A stretch of 64,000 bases of DNA, from IMG/VR virus record IMGVR_UViG_3300031227_000013, one strand, 5' to 3'. The number at the start of each line of letters is the position of its first letter. Position 1 is the first letter of the stretch. Position numbers and translations under genes: made by a program. The notes under the pieces are model-generated. The model worked only from the letters and a program-made list of their open reading frames with translations, ran no database searches and was not told the DNA's origin. Positions 15,797 through 20,991 of the stretch are shown in pieces. Source of the DNA: a virus.

Positions 15797-15878
15797 CGGC
15801 AGGTATTATTAGAAACAATACCGATCAGCCTGGAGAGAGGGAGAAATTGACTGATATACCGGTGATTCGCAAAATGTA

Positions 15879-16067
15879 CTACTGATTGATGACAATACTT
15901 ATGTTAACTTCTTTATGCATTGTCTGTTTACGGGCTTCGGGTTTTTCGAGATCAGCTGTTTTATCCTCTGTAGGTACAGGTGTACCCCCTTGGAATTGTT
16001 TTATCAGCTCACACAGCTTTGAAAATGAGTTTTCGTTACTCATCGTCTGTAGAAACAGTAAGTCCAC
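15879..16067 (-). CDS. Small hypothetical protein
   Basis: ORF track; overlaps the upstream small ORF. Confidence 0.4.
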   Translation of the reverse strand: MDLLFLQTMSNENSFSKLCELIKQFQGGTPVPTEDKTADLEKPEARKQTMHKEVNISIVINQ

Positions 16068-16221
16068 GTTGATCCGCAGCCCGTGGCAGGATCTCGTCTA
16101 ACTGTTCTGTGTAAGGTCTCTTTGTGGATTTCAATTCTTCCAGGTTATACCTGTCCGTTTCAGAAGGATAGGCGAAATCCAGCCCTTCCCTTCTCATTGC
16201 TTGTCTACTGTTGGTACTCAT
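16036..16221 (-). CDS. Small hypothetical protein
   Basis: ORF track; GGAG ribosome-binding site 5 nt before ATG. Confidence 0.55.
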   Translation of the reverse strand: MSTNSRQAMRREGLDFAYPSETDRYNLEELKSTKRPYTEQLDEILPRAADQRGLTVSTDDE

Positions 16222-16361
16222 TGTTACTCCGATTGGTTACAAGTTAATATACCGCATCTTTCCGCGGATTGCTTGCCATAGTGTCCAATCATAAAGTAAA
16301 ATTCATTCTAAAATTTCATTAAATCTAAAAAGTTTAGCAGATAAACCTCTGCCAGGTAGTT

Positions 16362-16391
16362 TATTATGCCAAAAAAACAGCTTTTTTTTAG
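16362..16391 (-). promoter_or_regulatory. Promoter-like motif copy 1: CTAAA-N15-TGGCATAATA
   Basis: Same motif and spacing at 24442-24471 and 27880-27909, all intergenic and upstream of minus-strand genes. Confidence 0.6.
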
Positions 16392-16424
16392 CATGCGCTT
16401 GTATTTCCCGGAAGGGCTGATATA

Positions 16425-19400
16425 TTGTTTCACATGTCAGAATTATCCACACAATTTAAACAAACTTTACAGGGATATCATAGCGGAGCATACAATTCCT
16501 ACCTCCCAATGCTTCCATATCTGCAGTTAGACGGTAAGCCTATGACTCTTAATCTGCATTATCCACTGGAACCCTTCTTTAAACTTACAATGCCTCGTAG
16601 GGTAGTGTTTATGGTGGCCCGGCAGTTGGGAAAAAGTATATCGCTTGCTTCCAGAGGTCTTTTAGACAGTGCAATGATACCTAATTTCCATACTTTATAC
16701 ATTCAGCCCCGTTATGATCAGATAAAAAGGTTCTCCACTAACTATGTAGGGCCTATTATCAAGGAAAGTTACCTCGGTAGGGTGTTCGAAGACCCAACCA
16801 GAGAGCAATCTATCCTGCAGAAGAGCTTTAGAAACGGTTCTAACATGTATTTCTCGTATGCTTTCCTAGATTGTGAGCGTTGTCGTGGATTTGCGGCAGC
16901 TAAATGTTTAGCGAAAGGTACTTTGATACAGGGGACTCCTATAGAAGATTTAAAAATAGGGAGAATCCTTGAATCGGTCACTAATGAAGGATATATTATA
17001 CATAATAAAGTCCAGAGAGTTGAAAAAACAGGGGTAAGACCTTGTTTTCGTATAACTTTAAATACTGGACATACTTTAACATGTACAATAGATCATAAAT
17101 TATTCAGCGATGTAGGTTGGATAACTATAGAGGAAATGGTGACTCATGCTTTCAGAAAAACAAAGACAGATGTTGTTGGGAACTCTTCTAGGGGACGGAC
17201 ATTTACAAATAGGAAGTTTAAAGAAGAAAACTTGCCGTTATCAATCAGCGCACGGATGGATTCAACACGACTACAATACCCAGAAATACATAATAATGAA
17301 AAATTATTTAACTCCGAGACAATTGGGGCTGGGAGAACCACAGAAAGTCGAGAACAGGGGGTTCGGGGAATGGTCCAGTCGATGGGGCACGACAACCAAT
17401 ACGGATTTGTTCTTTTTACACGAACTGATACACCTCCCTGGAAAGAAAAAGAAGACGATATCTCAGGAATGGTTAGACTTGATAACTCCCGAAGGGCTGA
17501 TGTGGTGGATATGCGACGACGGGAGTTTGCGAACAAAAGATCGACGATCTATACAGATACATACCGAGGGATTTCAAAAAGAAGAGGTAGAGCTCCTTTC
17601 AAAATGGCTCTATCAAAAATTCGATATAGAAAACAATGTTGTTCCTATAAAATCAAGAAGAAATATAGGGAAATATTATTATATTCTATGTTTATCTGTT
17701 CTAGGAACCAGAACCTGCGTGGATTTAATTCGGGAATTTACTCCGAAATGTATGAATTACAAGATAGATTATCGAAAACTACTCTGCGTAGAATGTGGGA
17801 CAGAGATACAGAGCAACAACAAGACATGTTCCGAAAAATGTTTTACCGACCATCATATAAAAAGGACGGCTATTTATACTCAGAAAAACCAGAAGAGAAT
17901 AAACAAAAGAAAGAGGGAATATTATGCCTCTCATCCGGAAATGAAAGAAAAGAAGAGACAATATATACAGGAGTATTTAAAGGATCCTCAGAAAAGAGAT
18001 CTCCACAATGCTACTCGAAGGAAATGGAGACATTCAAAAAAGGGAGACCCTGTATACGAACAAAAACTAAAAGAGGAACGGAAATTTTATTATCAAAGAT
18101 TGAAAGAAGATCCAGAAAAATACAACAAAAGAATAGATCATCACAATGCTTGGCGTCGAGAAAAACGAGTCAAAGGGGATACCTCCGAGACGGATTATAC
18201 CAGGGAATGGAGAAAACGAAACAAAGAGAAAGTAAAGATTCAAAAGCAGAATCAGTACAAGAAATTAAAGAAACGTATGGAGGAGGATCCTCAATACAGA
18301 CAGGAATTTTTAGCTCGGAAGAGGGAAAATTATCACAAGGGGAAAGAATCTCTTCAAAAGGGAAAGTGATTTCTATTGAATATGTGGGTATTAAAGATGT
18401 GTATGATATTCAAATGGAAAAACAACCTAACTTCTTTAGTAACAACATCTTAACTCATAATTGTTGCTTTGACGAGATTTCTGACATACAATACGACTTT
18501 ATTAGTACAATAGGTGAGGTTTTAAGTGCCCAGACCGAATATGGATTTTATCAGTTTACCGGAACCCCTAAAACTATCGATAATACGCTGGGTGTTCTGT
18601 TTTCAGACAGCTCTCAGGCGGAATGGATCATCAGATGTGGGTGCGGTAAACATAATATACCTAGTCTGGACCATGATTTATTACGGATGATAGGAAAGAA
18701 GACCTGTATCTGCGCTAATAAGAAATGCGGTAAGCCTCTGGATATAAGTACAGGAGAATATGTGCATGCGTACCCCGATAGACAGCATTCGTTCGCCGGA
18801 TATCATTTATCGCAGATAACACACCCTCTGCATGCTGAATTTCCTCTTAAATGGAGTGAGATGCTTTATAAGAGGTCTACTTATCCGGAAGCTAGATTTA
18901 ATAACGAGGTATTAGGGGTCCCGTGTGATGAAAATGTTAAACCTCTGACAGTAATGCACCTTAAACAGGCTAGTAACGGGCTTATCAATGATTACTCCAA
19001 GGCTGTTAAAGAACGTAAGAAGTACGATGCTGTAGTTATGGGAGTGGACTGGAGTGGATACGGTGCAGATAGTATATCGACAACGACAGTAGCTGTAATA
19101 GGTATAATACCCGGAAGCGAAACGGTACACTGTATATATGCTGAGAGATTTAAAATAGGGATAAAACCAGAAGACGAAGCTAAGAAACTTATTGAATATG
19201 CTTACCAGTTCGAGATAACATATTTTGCACACGATTTTTCAGGGGCTGGAATGATAAGGGAAGCCACAATAGTCCAACGGGGATACCCCGTGGAGCAAAT
19301 AGTACCCTTCCAAATCGTCCACGCCCCTGTTAACACTAGTATCATCAACTTCTACCAGCCCGCAAATGGTGGTAGAAGTTGTTACAATATAGATAAGACC

Positions 19401-19727
19401 CGTTCTTTACTGGTTCTGTTCGAAATGATTAAGAAACAGCAGGTAACTCTTCCCGACTGGGAAAAGAACGACGGGAAGACTAAGGATGTATTGAGTGATC
19501 TGCTGAATATAATGCAGGAGACGAGAGAAACTCCCCGCGGTAAGGATTATACCCTTATGATTAAAGTCCCTAACAAAACAGATGACTTTGCTTTCTCTCT
19601 TAATCTAGCCTGTTCCGCTATCTGGCATATTAGGGGCAGGTATCCGTCGCTGGTTACCAGTGTACAGGGTCCTTCCTACGAGGATATGGCACTGGCTGAC
19701 CCGCATCTAGCTAACTGGGATGTATAA
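16425..19727 (+). CDS. terL: Terminase large subunit, interrupted by an intein (precursor 1100 aa; about 580 aa after splicing)
   Basis: Walker A VARQLGKS; Walker B restored across the splice junction (RGFAAAK|CCFDEISD); nuclease VMGVDWSG and TDDFAF; likely start ATG 16434. Confidence 0.9.
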   Translation: MFHMSELSTQFKQTLQGYHSGAYNSYLPMLPYLQLDGKPMTLNLHYPLEPFFKLTMPRRVVFMVARQLGKSISLASRGLLDSAMIPNFHTLYIQPRYDQIKRFSTNYVGPIIKESYLGRVFEDPTREQSILQKSFRNGSNMYFSYAFLDCERCRGFAAAKCLAKGTLIQGTPIEDLKIGRILESVTNEGYIIHNKVQRVEKTGVRPCFRITLNTGHTLTCTIDHKLFSDVGWITIEEMVTHAFRKTKTDVVGNSSRGRTFTNRKFKEENLPLSISARMDSTRLQYPEIHNNEKLFNSETIGAGRTTESREQGVRGMVQSMGHDNQYGFVLFTRTDTPPWKEKEDDISGMVRLDNSRRADVVDMRRREFANKRSTIYTDTYRGISKRRGRAPFKMALSKIRYRKQCCSYKIKKKYREILLYSMFICSRNQNLRGFNSGIYSEMYELQDRLSKTTLRRMWDRDTEQQQDMFRKMFYRPSYKKDGYLYSEKPEENKQKKEGILCLSSGNERKEETIYTGVFKGSSEKRSPQCYSKEMETFKKGRPCIRTKTKRGTEILLSKIERRSRKIQQKNRSSQCLASRKTSQRGYLRDGLYQGMEKTKQRESKDSKAESVQEIKETYGGGSSIQTGIFSSEEGKLSQGERISSKGKVISIEYVGIKDVYDIQMEKQPNFFSNNILTHNCCFDEISDIQYDFISTIGEVLSAQTEYGFYQFTGTPKTIDNTLGVLFSDSSQAEWIIRCGCGKHNIPSLDHDLLRMIGKKTCICANKKCGKPLDISTGEYVHAYPDRQHSFAGYHLSQITHPLHAEFPLKWSEMLYKRSTYPEARFNNEVLGVPCDENVKPLTVMHLKQASNGLINDYSKAVKERKKYDAVVMGVDWSGYGADSISTTTVAVIGIIPGSETVHCIYAERFKIGIKPEDEAKKLIEYAYQFEITYFAHDFSGAGMIREATIVQRGYPVEQIVPFQIVHAPVNTSIINFYQPANGGRSCYNIDKTRSLLVLFEMIKKQQVTLPDWEKNDGKTKDVLSDLLNIMQETRETPRGKDYTLMIKVPNKTDDFAFSLNLACSAIWHIRGRYPSLVTSVQGPSYEDMALADPHLANWDV
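16905..18461 (+). mobile_element. Intein (519 aa) in the TerL ATPase domain
   Basis: Block A CLAKGTLI (Cys1 = TGT at 16905), block B TLTCTIDHKLF, block F DVYDIQM, block G NILTHN ending 18461, +1 residue Cys (TGT at 18462). Confidence 0.93.
17146..18369 (+). CDS. LAGLIDADG homing endonuclease encoded in the +1 frame inside the intein
   Basis: Motif 1 MLLGTLLGDGHL, motif 2 LMWWICDDGSL (LAGLIDADG_2 / I-SceI-like pattern); GAGGA and GGTGA SD-like sequences upstream of ATG 17146; C-terminal CVECG..TCSEKC and charged helical repeats. Confidence 0.9.
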   Translation: MLSEKQRQMLLGTLLGDGHLQIGSLKKKTCRYQSAHGWIQHDYNTQKYIIMKNYLTPRQLGLGEPQKVENRGFGEWSSRWGTTTNTDLFFLHELIHLPGKKKKTISQEWLDLITPEGLMWWICDDGSLRTKDRRSIQIHTEGFQKEEVELLSKWLYQKFDIENNVVPIKSRRNIGKYYYILCLSVLGTRTCVDLIREFTPKCMNYKIDYRKLLCVECGTEIQSNNKTCSEKCFTDHHIKRTAIYTQKNQKRINKRKREYYASHPEMKEKKRQYIQEYLKDPQKRDLHNATRRKWRHSKKGDPVYEQKLKEERKFYYQRLKEDPEKYNKRIDHHNAWRREKRVKGDTSETDYTREWRKRNKEKVKIQKQNQYKKLKKRMEEDPQYRQEFLARKRENYHKGKESLQKGK

Positions 19728-19738
19728 AGGAAAATAAT

Positions 19739-20002
19739 ATGAGTGAAGTAAAGATAGTGTGTGGGGACGAAGAATTAGTAATAGGTGATGTTCTGGATAC
19801 AGTTGTCGTATACAGTAAAGATAATAAGGATAATGAGATATGGTTCCAGACACGCTGTAAGGATTATTATAAGAAGGAACATACAGAGGAAGGTTACGAA
19901 AATATGATAGTCATTGAATTTGATAAAAGATTCTGGAAGAATAAAGATGTATTAAAACAAGTCGAAGATAAATTCGGAATAGATAAGGTGGTAGATTTAT
20001 AA
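19739..20002 (+). CDS. Hypothetical protein
   Basis: AAGGA RBS; operon with terL. Confidence 0.6.
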   Translation: MSEVKIVCGDEELVIGDVLDTVVVYSKDNKDNEIWFQTRCKDYYKKEHTEEGYENMIVIEFDKRFWKNKDVLKQVEDKFGIDKVVDL

Positions 20003-20991
20003 TGAAAATAATATCTGAAGAAAGAATAAATGTTCCGACAAACGCCTGTCATGCAGCATCTATTGTATATTATGAGGGAAAGAAAATAACAGCATGGTTC
20101 GGCGGGGAGAGAGAAGGATACCTCTGCTGTATCTATACAAAGGTGGATAATAATCCTATACAGAGAACTTTCAATCCATCGTCGAGAGGCAGCTCCTGCT
20201 GGAACCCTGTTCTATTCACACATAACGATAAATTGTATATGTTTATGAAGGATGGAAGATTCTGTGACTGCTGGCAGACAGTTCTGTTTACGCTGGAGTT
20301 AAAGGGCGGGAAAGTTGTCCCTAAAGATTATATAATGTATCCCGCAGGATTCAACGGCTGTGTCAAGACGAAGCCTATTTTTAAAGGCAATATGATGGTA
20401 TGCGGATCGTCCGTGGAAACTGCTATGAACTGGACATCCTATATAGAGGCTTATAAGGAGCCCTTCAACGACTTTAAGGGTAGAAGGCGCTCTAACCCTA
20501 TAATTGGACCAATCACCTCTCAGGGGCTGTTACAGCCCGCTATATGGTATGCTGATGAAAAGTACCATGCATTAATGCGGAGTTCCCGGGATCTTCCATG
20601 TATATATTACAGCTCTTCCAGTAATCTATATAACTGGGATAAAGCTGTTCCTACAGATGTAATGAATCCTAACAGCTCTATCGATGTCGTCCACCACAGT
20701 TCCGGAAAAACATATCTGGTATGTAATCCGGATAGTAGAAACCGGTGTCCTCTGTCTCTGATGGAATTTACTGTTATACTAAAAAAAGGATTAGTTCTTA
20801 AGAAGATGCGGGCTGATCTGGATATAAAAGAAAGTATTGTTATAGACGACGATACTTCAGATACATTCTATCCGGACGCTGTCAGCAGAGAACTGTCGTA
20901 TCCTTTCGCCATAGAGAATCCGGACGGGAATATAGAAGTCGCGTACACGTACCACCGTTCGGAAATACGTGTAGCGACTATCAAATGTTAA
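20002..20991 (+). CDS. BNR-repeat sialidase/neuraminidase-like beta-propeller protein
   Basis: CHAASI...AWFGGEREG...WNPVLF...KTKPI...LLQPAIW...ALMRS...NPNSSID...RCPLSL...ELSYP...YTYHRSEI, matching the BNR_2 / exo-alpha-sialidase family pattern as recalled. Confidence 0.75.
   Translation: MKIISEERINVPTNACHAASIVYYEGKKITAWFGGEREGYLCCIYTKVDNNPIQRTFNPSSRGSSCWNPVLFTHNDKLYMFMKDGRFCDCWQTVLFTLELKGGKVVPKDYIMYPAGFNGCVKTKPIFKGNMMVCGSSVETAMNWTSYIEAYKEPFNDFKGRRRSNPIIGPITSQGLLQPAIWYADEKYHALMRSSRDLPCIYYSSSSNLYNWDKAVPTDVMNPNSSIDVVHHSSGKTYLVCNPDSRNRCPLSLMEFTVILKKGLVLKKMRADLDIKESIVIDDDTSDTFYPDAVSRELSYPFAIENPDGNIEVAYTYHRSEIRVATIKC

Follow-up and report, generated by a model that had tools for sequence, protein, structure and literature searches.

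The gene for the large terminase subunit (TerL) of an uncultured phage was analyzed in a 64,000-nucleotide (nt) stretch of viral DNA (IMG/VR record IMGVR_UViG_3300031227_000013), which is referred to below as the window. Positions 16425..19727 of the plus strand form an uninterrupted open reading frame (ORF) of 1100 amino acids (aa), with a start codon at TTG 16425 or ATG 16434. The ORF consists of two exteins separated by a class-1 intein. Between the splicing blocks of the intein, the same strand carries a second ORF in the +1 frame, the predicted product of which is a LAGLIDADG homing endonuclease. The features of the locus are listed here, with the predicted local distance difference test (pLDDT) values taken from AlphaFold2 (AF2) models.

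16425..19727, plus strand: terL including the intein, GpA type, with matches to PHROG 675 from both exteins
16425..16904, plus strand: N-extein, with Walker A RQLGKS at 16620-16637 and terminal residues RGFAAAK
16905..18461, plus strand: class-1 intein of 519 aa in the TerL frame, from Cys1 to His-Asn, followed by the +1 Cys
16905..17168, plus strand: N-terminal splicing region, intein aa 1-88, pLDDT ~90
16905-16931, plus strand: block A, CLAKGTLIQ, with Cys161 as the N-terminal nucleophile
17073-17105, plus strand: block B, TLTCTIDHKLF, with TxxH present as T-I-D-H
17146..18369, plus strand: predicted homing endonuclease gene of 407 aa in the +1 frame, PF03161 match at 8.5e-24, I-SceI fold
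17169..18344, plus strand: host-frame "filler", intein aa 89-480, stop-free, hydrophilic, and predicted to be disordered
18345..18461, plus strand: C-terminal splicing region, intein aa 481-519, with blocks F and G
18369-18416, plus strand: block F, ISIEYVGIKDVYDIQM
18441-18464, plus strand: block G, NNILTHN (last nucleotide 18461), in which His-Asn is followed by the +1 Cys
18462..19727, plus strand: C-extein, which opens with the +1 Cys and the Walker B strand CCFDE (18462-18476)

The identity of the host gene, at first only assumed to be terL, was confirmed by the matches of both exteins to PHROG 675 (terminase large subunit). The N-extein matched with an E-value of 5.6e-10 (profile positions 28-140) and the C-extein with 8.8e-32 (profile positions 159-556), and the two matched parts of the profile adjoin each other. 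As in a TerL of GpA type, the profile spans the ATPase and nuclease parts, and Walker A (GKS) and CCFDE are present. The TerL homologues without intein are 573-584 aa long and contain PF05876. The gene is the sole TerL copy in a complete phage genome of 185 kb, the ends of which are direct terminal repeats; a second TerL copy was considered and is excluded by this complete genome. The identical 1100-aa ORF is on record from at least 14 JGI contigs; for its product, the cluster representative was found on 14 Logan/ENA contigs. A blastn search with terL against the phage collection gave no match, and a scan for a C-extein pattern across viral contigs was also negative.

The intein matched the Pfam family Intein_splicing (PF14890) at 3.7e-12. 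When the whole 1100-aa ORF was searched against Pfam, the intein splicing domain (3e-11) was the only domain detected in frame 0. Every canonical class-1 splicing residue is present, namely Cys1, TxxH, His-Asn, and the +1 Cys. In the AF2 model, intein aa 1-88 and 481-519 form the HINT core, which superposed on the Mtu RecA and Ssp DnaB mini-inteins with a root-mean-square deviation of 1.8-2.0 across 85-87 residues. The motifs and the model point to a splicing-competent intein, and this prediction is part of an overall explanation that we regard as highly probable. The two splicing halves would fold around a spacer loop, much like the linker-containing mini-inteins that have been engineered. 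Excision of the spacer together with the intein would leave a TerL of 581 aa.

The +1 ORF is placed between block B, which ends at 17105, and block F, which starts at 18369. Its ATG is located 13 codons 3′ of block B, and its TGA (18367-18369) shares nucleotides with the K-V-I codons that open block F. The 407-aa product matched LAGLIDADG_2 (PF03161), with the E-value given above, and also PHROG 11023. The following parts were distinguished in it.

17146..17769, plus strand: I-SceI-like monomeric LAGLIDADG core, aa 1-208, assigned from motifs, the AF2 model, and the structure match
17170-17205, plus strand: LAGLIDADG motif 1, MLLGTLLGDGHL, aa 9-20, with Asp17
17497-17529, plus strand: LAGLIDADG motif 2, LMWWICDDGSL, aa 118-128, with Asp124/125
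17785..17841, plus strand: zinc-ribbon-like element CxxC-x10-CxxxC, aa 214-232, with a weak Zn_Ribbon_1 match
17833..18357, plus strand: C-terminal extension rich in Lys, Arg, and Glu, aa 230-404, with nine helices in the AF2 model

Residues G12, G16, D17, W121, D124, and G126 are invariant across 36 relatives, and so are C214, C217, and C232 of the zinc-ribbon-like element in the aligned relatives. The AF2 model of the +1 product has a mean pLDDT of 91.4. In a Foldseek comparison, its aa 1-213 aligned with I-SceI (1r7m) with a TM-score of 0.76 and an E-value of 6e-12, and the model also superposes on I-WcaI. Both enzymes were also found by sequence, with phmmer E-values of 6e-7 and 4.5e-6. 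These data indicate that the gene probably codes for an I-SceI-type monomeric LAGLIDADG homing endonuclease, with predicted cleavage activity. In the helical extension, the pLDDT is mostly 83-97, with one block at 59. Pfam gave no family match for this extension, and Tandem Repeats Finder revealed no repeats at the DNA level to account for the helical tail. The extension presumably binds DNA.

The two coding frames overlap over 1221 nt. In this DNA of 38% GC, no stop codon is present in the TerL frame and 31 are present in the third frame. Shuffling of the endonuclease codons produced 35.4 ± 4.1 stops in the TerL frame (minimum 18-20), and shuffling of synonymous codons produced 27.5 ± 3.3, with a minimum of 14 in 20,000 trials. 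The window is an extreme case of purging, in which 27-35 stops were avoided; an earlier estimate of ~19 expected stops was too low. The stops are kept out by never placing an endonuclease codon that ends in T before a codon that starts with AA, AG, or GA. Such T-ending codons were found at 0 of 152 of these positions versus 95 of 254 elsewhere (P ~1e-31 at the elsewhere rate and 3e-18 at the overall rate). The codon mechanism first proposed for this locus was correct as to the avoidance of TAA, TAG, and TGA, but it named C-ending codons as the means, and in fact A-, G-, and C-ending codons are all used.

During translation of terL, ribosomes would read the overlap in frame 0 and produce ~390 hydrophilic, unstructured residues without conserved sequence. 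The filler is composed of 25% hydrophobic and 35% charged residues, in comparison with 37% and 21% in the exteins. Its AF2 pLDDT is below 50 at intein aa 91-143, 177-392, and 411-480. Within the disordered filler, a long helix was modeled at intein aa 125-160 (window 17277-17430, aa 125-175), and the pLDDT rises to 63-84 around intein aa 141-170; this may be an artefact of an alignment of nine sequences.

A preliminary description of this DNA had been made from the letters alone, and all the features observed in it were recovered here. The complete splicing blocks at both ends of the TerL-frame intein agree with the motifs and with PF14890. The 407-aa LAGLIDADG protein with both motifs in the +1 frame (17146-18369) was recovered with PF03161 and the I-SceI fold, and the positions of its ATG just past block B and of its TGA within the KVI codons are as described. 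The intein-frame text between the blocks, said to carry no endonuclease motifs, has no Pfam domain and is disordered in the AF2 model, and the TerL frame is free of stops through the overlap, as stated there.

A profile built from three endonucleases was used for a homology search, which yielded 27 viral and 53 metagenomic loci. By endonuclease homology alone, 44 distinct sequences were found in which a far longer frame without stops encloses the LAGLIDADG ORF. In total, these 44 loci have 0 host-frame stops versus ~290 expected. They originate from unrelated assemblies with a GC content of 29-64%, and this bears directly on the possibility of an artefact. As the record is metagenome-derived, two compensating indels in sequencing or assembly could be imagined to have displaced an endonuclease that is really in frame. 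We give this explanation practically no weight. The stop-free frame 0 itself refutes it, because indels cannot remove ~30 expected stops; the identical ORF on the JGI contigs and the same layout in the 44 assemblies speak against it as well.

The nested loci were divided according to the frame of the endonuclease relative to the host. In class A (host frame +1), the hosts are homologues of the window TerL, with the exception of L059, which is also +1 but has a helicase as host and is placed outside the TerL clade. In class B (host frame +2), the hosts are superfamily 2 (SF2) helicases with ResIII and Helicase_C domains. In a maximum-likelihood tree, 12 TerL(+1) endonucleases formed one clade (96/96) and 31 helicase(+2) endonucleases another (100/100), and the two clades are sisters (93/85). 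The branch lengths in the TerL(+1) clade exceed 0.5 substitutions per site. Free-standing relatives (19 loci without an enclosing ORF) and most in-frame relatives were placed outside the nested clades. It had been suggested that the arrangement might be an evolutionary intermediate; the supported, deep clade and its sister clade of 31 show instead that the layout is old and stable.

The preliminary description had also proposed a comparison of homologues for stop depletion and for selection in each frame. The first gave the total of 0 host-frame stops reported above. In the second, differences between related pairs by endonuclease codon position were, for example, 0.08/0.04/0.20 and 0.12/0.10/0.36, and pairwise identity was, for example, 0.61 in the endonuclease frame versus 0.32 in the host frame and 0.32 in the third frame. 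The pattern shows that, in these relatives, purifying selection acts on the endonuclease frame alone. Because the substitutions favour codon position 3 of the endonuclease and the host-frame identity equals the third-frame identity, only the endonuclease is conserved as a protein, and the lack of stops is the sole selected property of the frame-0 spacer. The filler was also considered as a conserved protein and rejected, as its identity between relatives is that of the third frame.

Some further properties of the relatives were recorded. The class B loci (L005, L007, L017, L036-L048, and others) have a conserved endonuclease N-terminal extension of ~80-110 aa with a CxCGC motif, and their endonuclease frame opens near block B. 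In class A, the inteins of L001, L004, L008, L032-L034, L054, and L058 have Ser1 in place of Cys1, and in many the block-B His is replaced with Ser or Thr (TSES, TADS, TAES, TADT). A terminal Gln instead of Asn was seen in L001, L054, L058, and L065, so that non-canonical splicing residues occur in an essential gene. The public gene call for L004:4169-7561 consists of a 377-aa endonuclease and a 414-aa C-terminal TerL fragment, and the stop-free TerL ORF of 1130 aa was missed. The TerLs P0126, P0130, P0136, P0140, and P0142-P0145 are 1056-1139 aa long, and several of them show only PF14890 or PF05876; these are probably additional out-of-frame cases. In L009/L069 (an 851-aa ORF), a PF03161 LAGLIDADG is in frame inside a PF14890 intein (2.5e-11). 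This pair branches close to the base of the nested clades, and the out-of-frame lineages may have an in-frame relative in it.

It could be argued that the intein does not splice, and that TerL works with an insertion of ~519 aa by Walker B, or that the gene is dead and packaging is achieved otherwise. Splicing activity is so far a prediction, and several relatives in the clade have Ser1, Ser or Thr in block B, and a terminal Gln. The window intein has every canonical residue, though, and its insertion is inside the ATPase core, beside Walker B, of the only TerL in a complete genome. The strong openness of frame 0 makes sense only if the C-extein needs to be translated. We consider a non-splicing intein very improbable.

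The insertion sites were compared next to their sequence contexts. The window intein is located between Lys160 and the Cys that opens the Walker B strand (AAAK-C...HN-CCFDE). In the class A relatives and the further long TerLs, the intein directly follows the Walker B Asp-Glu (xDE-S/C...N/Q-CQD), and the helicase inteins of class B follow motif II (DE-C...HN-CQH or CHH). A target of the DE-CQ type is common to the TerL and helicase clades, which fits the nucleotide-binding-site route of extein switching proposed by Gosselin et al. (bioRxiv 10.1101/2025.01.02.630785). The window intein is inserted five codons upstream of the usual site of the family, and its usual DE site is empty. The distribution of inteins among the nearest TerLs is sporadic. 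The nearest intein-less TerL, P0003 (73% identical), reads AVAK-CAFDE, with a native Cys at +1; the nearest intein-bearing one, P0125 (1492 aa, 71% identical), has an in-frame LAGLIDADG_3 intein at the other site (AKCCFDE-S). No near-identical copy of the window intein in a divergent extein was found among the relatives. The cleavage target and the mobility of the endonuclease are predictions; it presumably cuts intein-less terL alleles of co-infecting phages and so brings about homing.

Two features upstream of the nested ATG are relevant to the expression of the endonuclease.

17130-17134, plus strand: Shine-Dalgarno (SD)-like GAGGA, 11 nt 5′ of the endonuclease ATG
17140-17142, plus strand: TGA in the endonuclease frame, two codons 5′ of the ATG

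The SD-like sequence noticed at first inspection is therefore present at GAGGA 17130-17134. The region upstream of the nested ATG, TATAGAGGAAATGGTGACTC, looks like the ribosome-binding sites found ahead of other window genes. An SD-like site was found for 26 of the 47 long ORFs of the window versus 7% in the background, and several of these sites have the ATAGAGG form with the same spacing. The ATAGAGG sequence recurs ~11-12 nt 5′ of the starts of minus-strand ORFs of 153, 222, and 364 aa, as well as of the plus-strand ATG 17146, and it may be the preferred ribosome-binding context of the phage. Since the TGA closes the +1 frame, the endonuclease is not an upstream fusion and must initiate independently. 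The +1 ORF would be translated as a separate protein on the terL transcript from its own SD and ATG. A promoter and terminator scan of 15800-20200 gave nothing above shuffle expectation, and an internal endonuclease promoter is unsupported. An Rfam scan of 16000-20000 detected no RNA family, and no intron or frameshift element was found there.

These results also bear on programmed frameshifting or bypassing, by which ribosomes could join the endonuclease to the splicing halves and restore a canonical fusion. The endonuclease is indeed located exactly where an in-frame domain is expected. Two efficient shifts would be required, however, the TGA closes off the +1 frame only two codons ahead of the ATG, and no Rfam element was detected in the region. 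Moreover, frame 0 need not be stop-free in such a mechanism, yet it was purged in 44 loci. The chance that frameshifting explains the locus is slight, and we place it even below that of a non-splicing intein.

Taken together, the comparative, structural, and statistical evidence makes it very probable that the +1 frame holds a separate endonuclease gene and that the TerL frame holds a filler which is spliced out of an essential terL. An endonuclease kept apart from the splicing frame, with ~400 aa of filler removed by splicing, was the central proposal of the preliminary description, and the same evidence supports it. Several observations weigh on the other side. The AK-C insertion site was not seen in any other sampled member. 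Selection on the endonuclease of the window was deduced from its clade and from its intact motifs, because there is no close relative with the exact insertion site. The AF2 intein model was built on nine sequences only. The 11-nt spacing of the SD is among the longest usually seen, and elongating terL ribosomes could occlude the internal start, so that the endonuclease output may be very low.

The strongest competitor of a functional endonuclease gene is a relic that became fixed recently: splicing would continue and the frame-0 spacer would still be required, but the +1 ORF would be untranslated or inactive and would not have decayed yet. The absence of near-identical inteins in divergent exteins and the insertion site unique to the window are in accord with it, and current mobility is unproven. 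It is nevertheless hard to reconcile with an intact 407-codon ORF in DNA of 38% GC, where the third frame has 31 stops. The catalytic and structural motifs are all conserved, the fold is confident, the endonuclease frame is under purifying selection in the relatives, and the SD resembles that of other genes of the phage. We consider a relic unlikely, although less so than the other alternatives discussed above.

Inteins with out-of-frame endonucleases have been described before. Gosselin, Arsenault & Gogarten (bioRxiv 10.1101/2025.01.02.630785) reported actinophage inteins of this kind, many within TerL. The endonuclease genes in them are LAGLIDADG or Vsr-like when antisense, and endonuclease VII-like when located in frame 3 of the same strand, and the authors proposed that a free-standing endonuclease invades an intein. 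The same preprint cites Gorbalenya 1998 for an antisense LAGLIDADG of the Synechocystis (Ssp) DnaX intein, and a 2026 preprint on dnaX inteins (10.64898/2026.09.14.751524) has an "out-of-frame homing endonuclease" in its title. Thus, the view in the preliminary description that no such case was known in a bona fide intein does not hold, and the general design is already described. Three marks of the non-canonical inteins of Gosselin et al. were found at the window locus: an out-of-frame ORF between the blocks, an open host frame without an endonuclease domain, and free-standing relatives. Like the window intein, theirs interrupt an essential phage gene close to a nucleotide-binding motif, and that gene is often TerL; in their frame-3 cases a same-strand ORF lies between the splicing blocks while the host frame is open and structureless in predictions. 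In contrast to their same-strand cases, the window endonuclease is of the I-SceI-type LAGLIDADG family (PF03161) rather than endonuclease VII-like, and it occupies frame +1 rather than frame 3. The hosts also differ, being uncultured environmental phages of the window kind and actinophages, respectively. Stop-purging statistics, selection tests for each frame, and a two-clade phylogeny (TerL +1 and helicase +2) are added here. A literature search found no earlier description of an I-SceI-type LAGLIDADG that is out of frame on the same strand in TerL. Specific to the window are the same-strand endonuclease of this type, the extreme purging in AT-rich DNA, and the insertion site five codons upstream.

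Other systems share part of this layout. The antisense inteins of DnaX and of actinophages also have a LAGLIDADG in a bona fide intein outside the intein frame. According to the 2025 preprint, it is on the opposite strand, whereas the LAGLIDADG of the window shares the strand of terL and can be transcribed together with it. For the ShiLan phage DNA methylase insertion, the report (PMC11855218) describes a stop-free host frame with a hidden out-of-frame HNH homing endonuclease; the insertion is not identifiable as an intein there, unlike that of the window, which has all splicing blocks. In the fractured genes of Dassa et al. 2009 (PMC2677866), an endonuclease of the free-standing type also lies between intein halves, but the host gene is in two ORFs and trans-splices, whereas the window host frame runs through unbroken. 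A split intein or fractured gene was rejected for the window, as its host gene is a single 1100-aa ORF and not two. I-SceI and I-WcaI (PDB 1r7m and 6x1j) have the same fold and belong to the same sequence family. They are encoded in group I introns, in contrast to the window enzyme, which is in an intein and has in addition a zinc ribbon, together with a helical tail of 175 aa. In-frame LAGLIDADG inteins have the same splicing chemistry, with the endonuclease fused, unlike in terL.

One such in-frame intein is a second intein of the same genome, outside the window. It was found in a 2009-aa RNA polymerase beta/beta′-like ORF, L003 (G000:C1:161559-164816). At L003:781-2640, the extein residues GGKSKRIG are followed by CFPAGQKI...TKNH...LYGGMLGDS...CMWVLDDGS...VLVSN and then by SMEIAAL, and its PF03161-type LAGLIDADG (6e-15) is an in-frame fusion. 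In a single phage, PF03161-type endonucleases thus occur in both the in-frame and the out-of-frame arrangement.

The solved structures closest to the window endonuclease are intron-encoded enzymes. Because of this homology to enzymes such as I-SceI, the endonuclease gene is probably the older of the two. The intein frame would then have been laid over a pre-existing endonuclease and purged of stops, which is the reverse of classical overprinting and of the direction first assumed, in which the endonuclease was the overprinted part. Among the members that are short and richer in GC, up to 1-2% of synonymous shuffles leave the second frame free of stops, which makes a chance-open invasion of a mini-intein plausible. 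Such an element could afterwards have spread into AT-rich genomes under continuous stop purging.

A wider history can be offered tentatively, and we hold it to be possible rather than probable. An ancient free-standing endonuclease of I-SceI type would have been captured once by an intein, and the TerL(+1) and SF2-helicase(+2) lineages would both descend from that event, with out-of-frame nesting as a long-lived end state. The lineages would have moved between genes via the shared Walker-B target, which is DE-CQ in both. The window element would be a derivative that shifted 15 bp upstream to AAAK-C in a TerL lineage with an empty DE site. If this is true, the window offers a naturally occurring case in which an intein, together with its endonuclease, switched insertion site and kept its dual coding.

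For surveys of phage genomes, such loci matter in a practical way. Gene callers mis-annotate them, and in intein surveys they would pass for mini-inteins or for inteins in decay. The clade also provides, in its I-SceI-like enzymes, a pool of candidate meganucleases, with targets that can be inferred from Walker-B coding DNA. For the biology of the phage, the statistics and the phylogeny show that an essential gene can hold more than 1.2 kb of dual-frame DNA in which one reading is conserved and the other is merely stop-free and harmless. The out-of-frame layout would uncouple the expression of the endonuclease from that of the host protein, and it supports the view of intein origins in which the splicing domain comes first and the endonuclease invades later.

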